Position numbers and translations under genes: made by a program
Source of the DNA: Candidatus Saccharimonadales bacterium
Lineage (GTDB): Bacteria; Patescibacteriota; Saccharimonadia; Saccharimonadales; EFPC-124
DNA: 64,000 nt
Assembly: GCA_035710125.1 (NCBI GenBank)
Contig: DASTDY010000070.1
Coordinates: 25,396-89,395 of the forward strand
Direction: 5' to 3'
The notes under the pieces: model-generated
What the model was told of the DNA's origin: nothing
The model's input: the letters and a program-made list of their open reading frames with translations, nothing else
The model's database searches: none
Part shown: in pieces, positions 60,988-64,000 of the stretch
Position numbering within the stretch: the stretch's first letter is position 1
Layout: each line of letters opens with the position of its first letter

Positions 60988-61059
60988 AACCTCTTGCTTT
61001 CTCTGTTAAAAAAAGGTAGAACTAATACAAGCTCACTTTAATTTGTGCGTTTAAAATGC

Positions 61060-61850
61060 TAACCCTCCGCCCTGAGCACGGCGGAGGGGTAGACAGCCAG
61101 GCCAACGGCTACCCCGAAGGCTGAACGTCTGGCTGGGGAACGGCGGGGTCAGCGCCTCGCCGTTCCGTAAAACTTGTGCTGGGTAACACCGCCGAACGGA
61201 CATCCCGGCGAGTGCCAGTGCGGGAGCCAGGGCTTTTTTCCTTTCACCTGGCTGGTGTCAGATAGTTTTCTGTCTGCTCCGGCCTAGAGAAGGACAGAGA
61301 GCTATCTGGCATCGAAAAAACTTGTGCTGTGGAGCACCCCTCGTCGTATTCCACAGCACAGCTGCATCAGGTAACTCTTCGGGGGTCGCCTGATGCAGAG
61401 CCAGACAGATGTGGTCCGAACTCACCCCCGGGAACCACCACATCTGTCTGGCACCTAAACCTCGAGGTGTCTTACTCTCCTGAGACATCTCAAGGGTTGC
61501 TTGTGTCCTGTCATGCTGTCCGACGGAAGGCAGGGCATAAGCACTGGTCAGGGGTTCAGCCCTGGCCATTTCACCCCGATGCCGGTCCAAGAGGTATAGG
61601 TTCGGGGTGAAAAGGGGAGTGCGTGAAGGTTTAGGGATCCCGCGCACTTTGGTTCCAACCGCATCAGCGCGAGGTTGGAACTACAGGGGGCGCGCATGTA
61701 AGAGAGATTCGCCATTCCGTGTGGCTTGAGTCTCCGGTGCGCGCCTCCTGCCTCTTAACCAAAGGCTTGGGCTATCCACCTCCTCGAGGGTAGTCCAAAT
61801 AGGGCCCCCTCTCTGGTAGATCACACTGCCAGAGAGGGGCGCCCCTCTAA
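61060..61850 (+). ncRNA. Candidate large structured ncRNA, copy A (family unassigned)
   Basis: ORF-free, hairpin-dense region. Landmarks: cttgtgctg (61321), agccagacagatgtgg-loop-ccacatctgtctgg hairpin (61399-61453), tcctgcctcttaa (61746). Terminal hairpins ccctctctgg/ccagagaggg and gagggg cg cccctc (61807-61847). Several helices contain G-T pairs only on the plus strand. Confidence 0.35.
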
Positions 61851-61989
61851 CTTGTAACGTTATTCTTATTAGAAGATCTTGACTTACACGGTCGAGAAAA
61901 GGTAGAAATAGTATCAGCGCAACCGCTATGTTCAACCTTAAGTTGGCATTGCTGGCGGCACAAAACGCAGGCGAACTCCACAGCTGCCC

Positions 61990-62560
61990 GAAAGTTCGGC
62001 TCCGGTGACGAAAGACTTCAGACTTGCACTTAGCCTAGTCTTTGGGAACCGCCGGGTAAGGCGTCTGGGCGCCGAAAGCTTGTGCTGCGACACCTTGCGC
62101 TGTCTGCAGCACATATACATCGGCGCCGACGGGTTCCGATGTAGCCAGACAGATGTGGCGCCCACTCCTGGCACCCCCCACATCTGTCTGGCCCAAAAAC
62201 CTCCCGAGTGCTCAAGAGCACACTCGGAGGTGCTTGTGTAGGATCCGGACCTGTCGGCGGACACTTCACAAGCATGTGACCAGGGAACACCACTCCTTGG
62301 TTACAAACACACCTCGTTATGCTCAAGATAGCTGGGTAACGAAGTGTGGGGGAGTACGCGGACTCTGGCGTACTATGACTCTGCCTGGCAGGGCAGAGCC
62401 TCAGGGACGCGCGTCAGTGAGATTCGCTGCACCGTGAATGCAGCTCGAGTCCTGACGCGCGTTCCTGCCTCTTAAATCGGACTGCACGATAAGTCCAAAA
62501 CCATTGCATAGGATCCCATTCGGTTATTTCATACCAGAAAGGGGATCCTTTTTCATTGCT
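61990..62560 (+). ncRNA. Candidate large structured ncRNA, copy B (diverged tandem paralogue of copy A), ending in an intrinsic-terminator-like hairpin + T-run
   Basis: The same landmarks are collinear with copy A at a ~745-bp offset: cttgtgctg (62079), agccagacagatgtgg hairpin (62143-62195), tcctgcctcttaa (62463). Helices corresponding to copy A show compensatory changes, for example tgtgctgtgg/ccacagcaca vs tgtgctgc/gcagcaca, and catcagg/cctgatg vs catcgg/ccgatg. Terminal hairpin aggatccc-N24-gggatcct + TTTTT (62510-62554). Confidence 0.35.
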
Positions 62561-62685: not shown

Positions 62686-62732
62686 AATATTAACATTTTG
62701 TAAAATGATGATGAGGAAGGCTTAATTAGACT

Positions 62733-63776
62733 ATGAACGACACTGCCGAAGCCGTCGTTACCCTAAATCTGCAAACTGCTGTCAAGGACATATTGGCAAC
62801 TGTTGAACGTGAGCGCGAGCGCGAAATTATCGCCCGGCGCTTTGGTTTGTATGATCGAAAGGAAACACTCGAACAAATCGGTGAACTCTTAGGTATCACC
62901 CGCGAGCGTGTTCGCCAACTAGAAAAGGCGATTATGATTCGCCTTAAGATTGCCGCCGAAGACAATCTTCCTCACATTGCAAATATCGAAAAACACTTTA
63001 TTCGCCACCTGCACGACCTTGGCCGTGTCGCCAAAGTACACGACCTCGCCAAACGAGCCGGTAACGACACGAGCGACCGCACCAAGGCCCATGTTGCCTT
63101 CTTAGCTGAAATCGCCCCACGCCTTGCCGTGGTAGACGAAAACGACCACTACCACCATGCGGTAGGCATAAAAGAGCACCACAGCGAAGCAGACATTAAA
63201 AAACATGTCGACACCATTGTAAGTACCGTAAAAAAACACGGTGAGCCTATTAGCATTGAAGAGCTTCATGCTAAAGTAGACCATGACCACCCTAGCCACG
63301 TGCGTGCGCTTGCAAGCGTCAGCAAAGAGCTAGCAAGCCTTAAAGACCGTTGGGGGCTTAGCCGCTGGCCAACCGTGAACCCTAAAAACATCCGCGACAA
63401 AATTTACGTGATTTTGCAAGAAAACGGCAAACCGCTGCACTTTAGTGATATTGCCAAGGCTATTAAGGCTTCCGATTTCCGCCGCAAAGATGTTACCACC
63501 CAAGCAATCCACAACGAACTGATTAAAGATGGTCGTTTTGTGTTGATTGGCCGAGGCATATACGCGCTTAAAGATTGGGGCTACAACAAGGGAACCGTTG
63601 CCGATATTATTATCGACATCTTAAACAAAGAGGGCGGCCCCTTGCACCGTGACGAAATCGTAAAACGCGTACTAAAACACCGCCAAGTTAAAGAAACAAC
63701 CATTCTTCTAAACTTGCAGGGCAAACAACGCTTTAAGCGAGTCGCCAAGGCAACCTACGCACTGGTTGAAAGCTAA
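62733..63776 (+). CDS. Predicted transcription factor with unusual architecture: N-terminal sigma-70 region-4 HTH + two C-terminal HARE-HTH domains
   Basis: REREREIIARRFGLYDRKETLEQIGELLGITRERVRQLEKAIMIRLK is a textbook sigma70_r4. KPLHFSDIAKAIKASDF...TTQAIHNELIKDGRFVLIGRGIYALKDWG and GPLHRDEIVKRVLKH...ETTILLNLQGKQRFKRVAKATYALVE both match the HARE-HTH pattern known from the RNAP delta subunit (phF.eIa.......tp.atl...l..D.RFv.vgRGlY.LkeW). Confidence 0.6.
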   Translation: MNDTAEAVVTLNLQTAVKDILATVEREREREIIARRFGLYDRKETLEQIGELLGITRERVRQLEKAIMIRLKIAAEDNLPHIANIEKHFIRHLHDLGRVAKVHDLAKRAGNDTSDRTKAHVAFLAEIAPRLAVVDENDHYHHAVGIKEHHSEADIKKHVDTIVSTVKKHGEPISIEELHAKVDHDHPSHVRALASVSKELASLKDRWGLSRWPTVNPKNIRDKIYVILQENGKPLHFSDIAKAIKASDFRRKDVTTQAIHNELIKDGRFVLIGRGIYALKDWGYNKGTVADIIIDILNKEGGPLHRDEIVKRVLKHRQVKETTILLNLQGKQRFKRVAKATYALVES

Positions 63777-63803
63777 AAAAACTTGAGCCATTCTGGCACC
63801 CTC

Positions 63804-63850
63804 AAGCCGCCACCTCTGGCCTGACTTTTGCAGGATAGAGGTGGCGGCTT
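63804..63850 (+). terminator. 14-bp inverted repeat aagccgccacctct-N19-agaggtggcggctt after the regulator gene; T-run follows at ~63865
   Basis: Perfect 14-bp stem, read directly, 28 nt after the stop. The TTTTT run is 15 nt downstream of the stem rather than adjacent. Confidence 0.4.
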
Positions 63851-64000
63851 GGGGCAGTCGGCACTTTTTACATCAAAAACTAAACAGAGAGGGCAAAATT
63901 ACCCCAACTGTAGTTTGCAACTACAGCGTATTTGCGGGACAATAGTATAAAGCAATGGACGTGCTATCTTTTCTATTTAGCTTGCTTGGCAAGTGGTACA

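Follow-up and report, generated by a model that had tools for sequence, protein, structure and literature searches.

A gene near the end of a 64,000-nucleotide stretch from a Candidatus Saccharimonadales bacterium (contig DASTDY010000070.1, positions 25,396 to 89,395; hereafter the window) raises the question of what a protein does when it joins region 4 of a sigma factor to winged helices related to the RNA polymerase (RNAP) delta subunit. The coding sequence (62733..63776, + strand) starts with ATG and encodes 347 amino acids (aa), comprising sigma region 4 followed by four HARE-type winged helices. We tentatively favour, at a little under an even chance, the reading that it encodes a Patescibacteria-specific, non-sigma DNA-binding transcription factor that would read -35-type hexamers, possibly touches RNAP, and is probably essential.

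The N-terminal domain (residues 10-78; 62760..62966, + strand) was assigned to primary-sigma-type region 4, covering 4.1 and 4.2 with the recognition helix GITRERVRQLE, using Pfam, NCBIfam, the Protein Data Bank (PDB), and Foldseek. Pfam Sigma70_r4 (PF04545) matched residues 27-72 with an E value of 1.2e-11 and 44.3 bits against a cutoff of 24.1. No Sigma70_r1_2, r2, r3, r4_2 or GerE/LuxR match was found in Pfam even at E<=1. In NCBIfam, residues 3-73 aligned to the C-terminal region 4 of the SigB, RpoS, and RpoD models. The PDB sequence search returned matches solely to sigma region 4, the top one being Mycobacterium tuberculosis SigB (7pp4_f, E 9e-11), and Foldseek placed the domain on region 4 of M. 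tuberculosis SigA at about 1.0 A over 61 columns with 43% identity. The AlphaFold2 model has the helices of this domain at residues 13-21, 27-37, 46-53, and 57-76. The initial annotation had described an N-terminal sigma-70 region 4 with regions 2 and 3 missing, and both statements held, as the protein begins at region 4. The homologs are equal in length to the 347-aa protein, so no sigma regions are hidden upstream of the ATG. The generic LuxR/GerE helix-turn-helix (HTH) that had been named as the alternative was ruled out, with SigB, RpoS, and RpoD as the top NCBIfam models. Region 4 of this protein is therefore of the group 1/2 type, without matches to extracytoplasmic function (ECF) or LuxR-type families.

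Conservation was compared across 129 representatives of the family with 30-60% overall identity. In the family helix, GITRERVRQIE, residues T56, R57, E58, R59, R61, and Q62 were at least 90% conserved, and the wider set of R28, R36, L46, E47, T56-R59, R61, and Q62 was 70-100% conserved. We take these to be the equivalents of R554, R562, L573, E574, T583-R586, R588, and Q589 of sigma-70, respectively, with roles as -35 DNA contacts, so that the protein keeps all of the known -35 contact residues. Such roles come from the structure of Thermus aquaticus sigma-A region 4 with -35 DNA and from sigma-70 genetics. The mapping used the Escherichia coli sigma-70 sequence; its numbering was consistent and the PDB alignments agree with the mapping. 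In contrast to the DNA contacts, the activator-contact positions corresponding to K593, R596, and K597 of sigma-70 were not conserved in the family. A search with the back-translated family motif, [IV]TRER[VI]RQ[IL][EQ], picked up ordinary sigma factors of many phyla at their region 4. Because the DNA-reading helix is near-invariant while the rest drifts to 30% identity, its target should be equally invariant, and the -35 hexamer would be the obvious candidate. The conserved contact residues thus lend support, at the level of sequence, to the -35-like DNA recognition that was proposed at the outset. The protein appears to be derived from the C-terminal promoter-reading module of a primary sigma factor.

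The whole chain was modelled by AlphaFold2 from an input of 36 diverse homologs. The model was compact, with a mean predicted local distance difference test score (pLDDT) of 94.1, a predicted template modelling score (pTM) of 0.86, and pLDDT above 87 from residue 11. It showed four winged helices after the sigma-4 domain, A at residues 80-146, B at 152-209, C at 220-279, and D at 289-344. In hhalign comparisons among the repeats, the probabilities were 95.4% for B-C, 96.5% for B-D, 95.7% for C-D, 87.5% for A-B, and 85% for A-D. Judged by these profile scores, the four winged helices are homologous repeats. None of the four sub-alignments resembled sigma-4 in the profile-profile comparison.

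Winged helix A (residues 79-150; 62967..63182, + strand), delimited by the model and hhalign as was B, is poorly conserved and neutral to acidic. Winged helix B (residues 151-215; 63183..63377, + strand) is likewise poorly conserved, ends with a near-invariant WGLxxWP, and gave weak Pfam matches to WH_Rok and TFIIE_beta. Winged helix C (residues 216-285; 63378..63587, + strand) is a bona fide HARE-HTH, similar to the N-terminal domain of RNAP delta, and is basic and the most conserved domain of the protein. Pfam HARE-HTH (PF05066) matched residues 224-282 with an E value of 3.3e-11 and 43.9 bits against a cutoff of 25.9, and NCBIfam RNAP_delt_lowGC (TIGR04567) matched residues 222-282 with 48.9 bits against a cutoff of 42. 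The stretch VHNELIKDxRFVLxGRGIYAL in C is nearly invariant. Winged helix D (residues 286-347; 63588..63773, + strand) is a second HARE-type unit, conserved and basic, recognized by hhalign to C and by a Pfam match only at the lenient E<=1. When residues 216-347 were searched against PDB, the sole significant match was Staphylococcus aureus RNAP delta (8x6g_E, E 8.7e-5). Delta-type HARE winged helices in the C-terminal half had thus been correctly predicted. The earlier count of two HARE-HTH copies was only partly borne out: Pfam saw one strong unit and one lenient match, and the model has four repeats.

In the 129 representatives, mean column conservation and median net charge were 0.48 and +4 for the sigma-4 domain, 0.29 and -2 for A, 0.35 and 0 for B, 0.64 and +6 for C, and 0.54 and +5 for D. 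Being the most conserved and basic, winged helices C and D look like nucleic-acid binders. The C-terminal unit of the 347-aa protein itself carries a net charge of +6, and the whole chain is folded. The likeness to delta is confined to one winged-helix domain, and the acidic tail typical of delta is absent.

The family is large and has one fixed architecture. More than 8000 close homologs were found, mostly in Saccharimonadales, and a HMMER search of 1.84 billion cluster representatives gave 609 clusters at E<=1e-30 (at least 609 at 50% identity). The best 150 of these 609 clusters were mostly full-length proteins of about 330-400 aa with some shorter fragments, and identity ranged down to about 32%. 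Sigma70_r4 was present in 36 of 36 sampled members and HARE-HTH in 35 of 36. A scan with one genome per species was queried with the sigma-4.2 motif. Among the matches listed, all 20 full-length ones belonged to Patescibacteria, and the other 60 loci were region 4 of ordinary sigma factors; the restriction of full-length matches to the candidate phyla radiation (CPR) thus applies to the matches listed. The Patescibacteria lineages among them were Saccharibacteria, Parcubacteria, Peregrinibacteria, Kaiserbacteria, and Paceibacterota.

Origin in a defence system or a phage was considered and rejected, as the matches in PADLOC, PHROGs, IMG/VR, and BFVD went no further than sigma-4 or generic winged helices. 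In PADLOC and PHROGs the matches were partial and limited to sigma-4 (MzaA, phrog_351), and BFVD held no structure with the same architecture. The only IMG/VR contig carrying the family (IMGVR_UViG_3300006302_000097, locus L086; 71% identity) is probably a misclassified Saccharibacteria fragment. A 659-aa protein with SecF N-terminal to the family (P0155) was set aside as an informative fusion; in some CPR (L084 is one such locus) secD-secF are located directly upstream of the family gene, so the protein is probably a merged gene call.

An ortholog has been placed under selection in Southlakia epibionticum. SEML1_0294, of 1050 nucleotides (nt), was named 'RNA polymerase sigma factor RpoS' by Prokka and has PF04545 at residues 27-72 and PF05066 at 225-283, with an ECOD description of 'tri-helical, winged, winged, winged' (Wang et al. 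2023, Cell, PMC10633639). It sits between SEML1_0293, which resembles a type IV coupling protein (T4CP), and topA (SEML1_0296), as the gene does in the window (PMC10633639). The match as ortholog was made by the Pfam architecture (about 349 aa) and by the topA / gene / T4CP synteny. In Tables S1 and S2, SEML1_0294 is flagged as a core and Patescibacteria-enriched family (PMC10633639). In transposon sequencing (Tn-seq) it was scored ES/ES/ES at three time points, the 24 insertions of the input DNA falling to 1, 1, and 2 after selection, and it is listed as class I essential while the main text is silent on it (PMC10633639). The neighbouring SEML1_0293 is non-essential, and a second T4CP-like gene, SEML1_0142 (3060 nt, 'TraM recognition domain-containing protein'), is class I essential (Table S1, PMC10633639).

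The tables of the same study show RpoD to be complete (regions 1.2, 2, 3, and 4) and essential (PMC10633639). They also list a canonical FtsK with its gamma domain, NusA, and RNAP subunits alpha, beta, and beta-prime only, with no delta or omega subunit annotated (PMC10633639). Besides RpoD, SEML1_0294 is the only sigma-related gene named in the Tn-seq table. A split sigma factor was rejected, as the window holds no region-2 coding sequence and S. epibionticum RpoD is complete; the neighbours in 25 loci are topA and an ATPase gene, and no region-2 partner is encoded nearby. A replacement of the FtsK gamma domain was also rejected, as S. epibionticum has a canonical FtsK with its own gamma domain.

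The signals in front of the gene were examined in alignments of Saccharimonadia upstream regions. A sigma-70-type promoter, P2 (62657..62685, + strand), was found by promoter scan with 10 of 12 matches; it reads TTGACA-17-TACAGT with TG before the -10. Its TTGAC and TAnAnT positions were invariant in 11 of 11 aligned Saccharimonadia loci, and the promoter named in the initial annotation was recovered with its -35 conserved. A candidate upstream promoter, P1 (62634..62642, + strand), is an extended -10-like element, TGCTATAAT, whose promoter function is suggested by an alignment of 11 Saccharimonadia upstream regions (alignment A2). In it, T52, A58, and A59 were invariant and C54, T55, A56, and T60 were at least 90% conserved. 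Saccharimonadia upstream regions therefore show a tandem promoter-like pair, with the extended -10 (TGCTATAAT) followed by TTGAC-17-TAnAAT 14-60 nt further on. The -35 hexamer of P2 lies just downstream of P1, a layout that would permit autoregulation by a -35-binding protein. The downstream ATPase gene has a conserved promoter of its own, TTGCAA-17-GACAAT (63915..63943, + strand), in which TTGC and G.G.GA.AAT were invariant in 7 aligned Saccharimonadia intergenic regions. In the window as a whole, TTGAC-N17-19-TANNNT occurred 8 times against 4.3 expected, a count attained in 5 of 100 shuffles. The use of -35/-10 promoters by the genome was counted in favour of the transcription-factor reading.

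In that reading, the stand-alone region 4 would most likely dock on TTGACA-type elements. The basic, near-invariant winged helices C and D would contact the neighbouring DNA or a conserved partner, for instance RNAP, and the variable A and B would serve as a rigid spacer. Lacking regions 2 and 3, the protein could not direct initiation by itself; at promoters it would compete, or cooperate, with region 4 of RpoD, the only housekeeping sigma factor. It would target no less than its own promoter and the promoter of the adjacent ATPase gene, and probably numerous further ones. We infer the binding to -35-like sites, the scope of the regulon, be it global or confined to this operon, and any contact with RNAP. 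In a bolder form of the proposal, a sigma-4 supplied in trans would serve as a general transcription factor, or as an additional RNAP subunit, that is essential and specific to the lineage; it would reach polymerase via the delta-type winged helices while reading -35 elements, with its supply perhaps tied to the membrane ATPase. We grant this form only a small share of the probability.

The gene has a conserved neighbour in the ATPase gene. The start of the latter (63957..64000, + strand) is cut by the window end 44 nt in, and it was recognized as the start of a membrane-anchored DUF8128 + TrwB/VirD4-like ATPase by comparison of MDVLSFLFSLLGKWY with MDLLSILFGLLGKWY of locus L001. The orthologs in L001 (11170-14133) and L084 (4263-7259) matched Pfam TrwB_AAD_bind, DUF87, and TraG-D_C, and the ATPase also matches T4SS-DNA_transf, which places it in the TrwB/VirD4/HerA-type class; TraG-D_C is the 'TraM recognition site'. 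DUF8128 and the ATPase are fused in Saccharimonadia (about 920-990 aa) and split into two genes in other CPR. The DUF8128 domain itself had no match in the Pfam copy used. At its C-terminus the ATPase carries a low-complexity tail of about 200 aa, rich in P, Q, and S, with a KKRKRRRR stretch. Among Saccharimonadia, identity was 66-74% for the ATPase compared to 55-60% for topA.

In 21 of the first 25 loci the gene is followed on the same strand by the ATPase gene. Among these 21 are 13 of the 14 distant CPR loci, at 30-36% identity, and gaps between the two genes were as short as 32 nt. It was also downstream in 34 of 58 Saccharimonadia metagenome loci with enough downstream sequence. The exceptions, which are the other 24 of these 58 loci together with L008-L010, form a subclade 58-64% identical to the query, with the gene beside topA and no ATPase within 5 kb. 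Loci of the ATPase-less subclade include L008-L010, L089, L102, L103, and others. The topA gene was upstream in 43 of 45 Saccharimonadia loci, and not in other CPR. In the window, the gene and the ATPase gene each have their own conserved sigma-70-type promoter, and a terminator-like hairpin lies between them. Because SEML1_0293 is non-essential and the subclade keeps the gene without the ATPase, the function of the gene is not confined to the adjacent ATPase. A survey of type IV secretion systems (T4SS) in Patescibacteria counted 5,713 VirD4-type T4CP homologues in 2,918 genomes, of which 148 were near virB4, and relaxases were almost absent (PMC12102498). There are about two T4CPs per genome, and the survey authors left their role open (PMC12102498).

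Several points weigh against a transcription factor of this kind. With a general factor, it is left unexplained why 13 of the 14 distant CPR loci have the gene immediately in front of the DUF8128/T4CP-like ATPase gene, and gene order conserved so deeply usually signals a physical or pathway link. SEML1_0142 is essential, and essentiality is therefore compatible with a role tied to these ATPases. Region 4 alone binds -35 DNA weakly in known sigmas, the N-terminal domain of delta is to our knowledge not an established sequence-specific DNA binder, and tandem winged-helix arrays also bind RNA (SelB) or proteins. Because the favoured reading does not explain the deep synteny, the explanations centred on the ATPase stay alive. 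One of them, which we consider unlikely, makes the protein a DNA-recognition or substrate-recruiting partner of coupling-protein-like ATPases, binding DNA via sigma-4, C, and D and handing it to the hexameric ATPase. Its models are TraM, TrwA, and PcfF with TraD, TrwB, and PcfC, or the way in which the gamma winged helix of FtsK reads FtsK orienting polar sequences (KOPS). The conserved order of the two genes (21 of 25 loci and 34 of 58 Saccharimonadia loci) and the ATPase matches to TrwB_AAD_bind, T4SS-DNA_transf, and TraG-D_C agree with such a partnership, and a partner shared with the essential SEML1_0142 could be essential too. It would also fit the T4CPs of Patescibacteria, which are mostly far from virB4, without relaxase, and with their role left open (PMC12102498). 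However, the adjacent ATPase is dispensable while the gene is class I essential, and the gene is kept and highly conserved in the subclade without the ATPase at the locus. Known T4CP accessory proteins are small ribbon-helix-helix (RHH) proteins and not sigma-derived, and S. epibionticum already has a canonical FtsK complete with gamma domain. A partnership also gives no reason for keeping the exact -35-reading residues of a primary sigma factor.

The same dispensability of the ATPase beside an essential regulator is the genetic pattern of kil-kor systems. The protein would then repress the ATPase promoter and its own promoter via their -35 hexamers, and would be essential only as the unregulated ATPase is toxic, with a precedent in KorA/TraR repressing the FtsK-like Tra gene of Streptomyces plasmids. 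Gene order is conserved as this explanation expects, and both genes have conserved sigma-70-type promoters with invariant TTGAC or TTGC -35 elements. We nevertheless hold it to be rather improbable. At loci that have lost the ATPase the gene is still found, with 58-64% identity, and the ATPase is better conserved than topA, which does not fit a selfish 'kil' gene. The operator-reading residues of local repressors normally drift together with the operators, whereas here they are near-invariant across the radiation and identical to the primary-sigma consensus. Still less probable in our view is an RNAP accessory subunit that reads no DNA sequence, with sigma-4 on the beta flap-tip helix of core or elongating RNAP and HARE on beta-prime, resembling delta or an elongation or recycling factor. 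Both recognisable modules do come from RNAP-bound proteins, Foldseek aligned 86-110 columns to chimeras of SigA region 4 and the beta flap-tip (8d5v), the gene is essential like rpoB, rpoC, and rpoD, and no delta or omega is annotated in S. epibionticum. Conservation, however, is concentrated on the DNA-contact face of helix 4.2, and in the holoenzyme RpoD region 4 already sits on the flap tip. Unlike delta, the protein has basic HARE units and no acidic tail.

The protein was compared with known systems. It shares with region 4 of primary sigma factors (RpoD/SigA, SigB, RpoS) the same fold, the same TRERVRQ recognition helix, and the same -35 contact residues. In contrast to them, it has no regions 1.2, 2, and 3 with which to bind the core clamp or melt the -10, its activator-contact basic patch is not conserved, four winged helices follow region 4, and the organism has a separate complete RpoD. 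Lacking region 2, it does not qualify as a sigma factor. With RNAP delta (RpoE) of Bacillota it shares a winged helix C that scores above the TIGR04567 cutoff and the DGRF...G...W.L..W signature common to S. aureus delta. Delta itself has one HARE domain and a long acidic disordered tail in about 170-200 aa, occurs in Bacillota, and is dispensable, whereas the present protein occurs in CPR and its ortholog is essential. With four winged helices, basic conserved units, a CPR host, and no acidic tail, the protein cannot be classed as a delta subunit.

SigO-RsoA (YvrI-YvrHa) of Bacillus subtilis likewise includes one polypeptide with sigma region 4 and no functional region 2. Here, unlike in that pair, no region-2 partner lies nearby, and the other sigma gene in the Tn-seq table is a complete RpoD. 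The T4CP accessory proteins TraM, TrwA, and PcfF and the kil-kor regulators are also DNA-binding and encoded beside a VirD4/TrwB-type ATPase. The known ones are small, belong to the RHH or GntR type, and are carried by mobile elements that have a relaxase, whereas this protein is chromosomal, phylum-wide, sigma-derived, and built of five domains, in Patescibacteria where relaxases are nearly absent. It thus matches none of the T4CP accessory proteins known so far. The best whole-chain Foldseek matches were tandem winged-helix arrays (SelB WH1-4, UFL1/DDRGK1, Dcc1, and Pol III RPC62), which also have consecutive winged helices. At TM-scores of 0.2-0.3 and identity of about 12-14%, this is a likeness of architecture only, and none of them has a sigma region 4.

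Patescibacteria account for a large part of bacterial diversity, carry very few regulators, and seem to rely on one sigma factor. A protein that is essential, occurs across the phylum, and puts the -35-reading head to new use outside a sigma factor would show how transcription is controlled in minimal cells. It would also assign a function to one Patescibacteria-enriched essential gene left unexplained by the first Tn-seq study. Linkage to the orphan coupling-protein-like ATPase offers a way into the study of that ATPase, the role of which was left open in the T4SS literature. If the sigma-4-in-trans form were true, promoter recognition in bacteria would have a layer that has so far gone unrecognised, and transcription control might be linked to secretion or DNA translocation. 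With genetic tools now available for Saccharibacteria, these hypotheses are directly testable.

Database names for the family are in conflict. They include 'RpoS' from Prokka, 'DNA-directed RNA polymerase delta subunit' from JGI, 'sigma factor-like helix-turn-helix DNA-binding protein' from NCBI, and in one further annotation 'Zn-ribbon and HTH transcriptional regulator'. RpoS is the wrong name for SEML1_0294, and the labels 'RpoS' and 'RNA polymerase delta subunit' are wrong for the family and unfit for inferring alternative sigmas in CPR genomes. In the literature on HARE-HTH with sigma, delta or CPR, no description of the family was found. The family is thus known in databases under generic or wrong names, and its essentiality stands unremarked in a supplementary table.

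Further signals were read from the sequence around the gene. A Shine-Dalgarno-like GAGGAAGG (62713..62720, + strand) lies 12 nt before the ATG. Behind the gene, a terminator-like region (63803..63868, + strand) consists of a 15-bp stem (CAAGCCGCCACCTCT / AGAGGTGGCGGCTTG) and then a short hairpin with a T-run, the latter also found by terminator scan at 63845-63860.

The initial annotation had placed the gene directly after a tandem of structured non-coding units, and this position was borne out. A functional link to that RNA was rejected, as the 1.7-kb element is absent at this position in relatives; the tie suggested earlier fell with it. In relatives only the last ~79 nt of the upstream element are present, and these ~79 nt hold the promoter. 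Neither unit matched Rfam at the gathering score or at E<=5, and JGI metagenomes held no exact match to the hairpin of the units. The element consists of two diverged tandem copies (about 60997-61880 and 61883-62500) that are free of open reading frames, GC-rich, and highly structured. The second unit had folding z-scores of -12.8 (+ strand) and -10.6 (- strand), and each unit holds a perfect hairpin of 15-16 bp, GCCAGACAGATGTGG...CCACATCTGTCTGGC.

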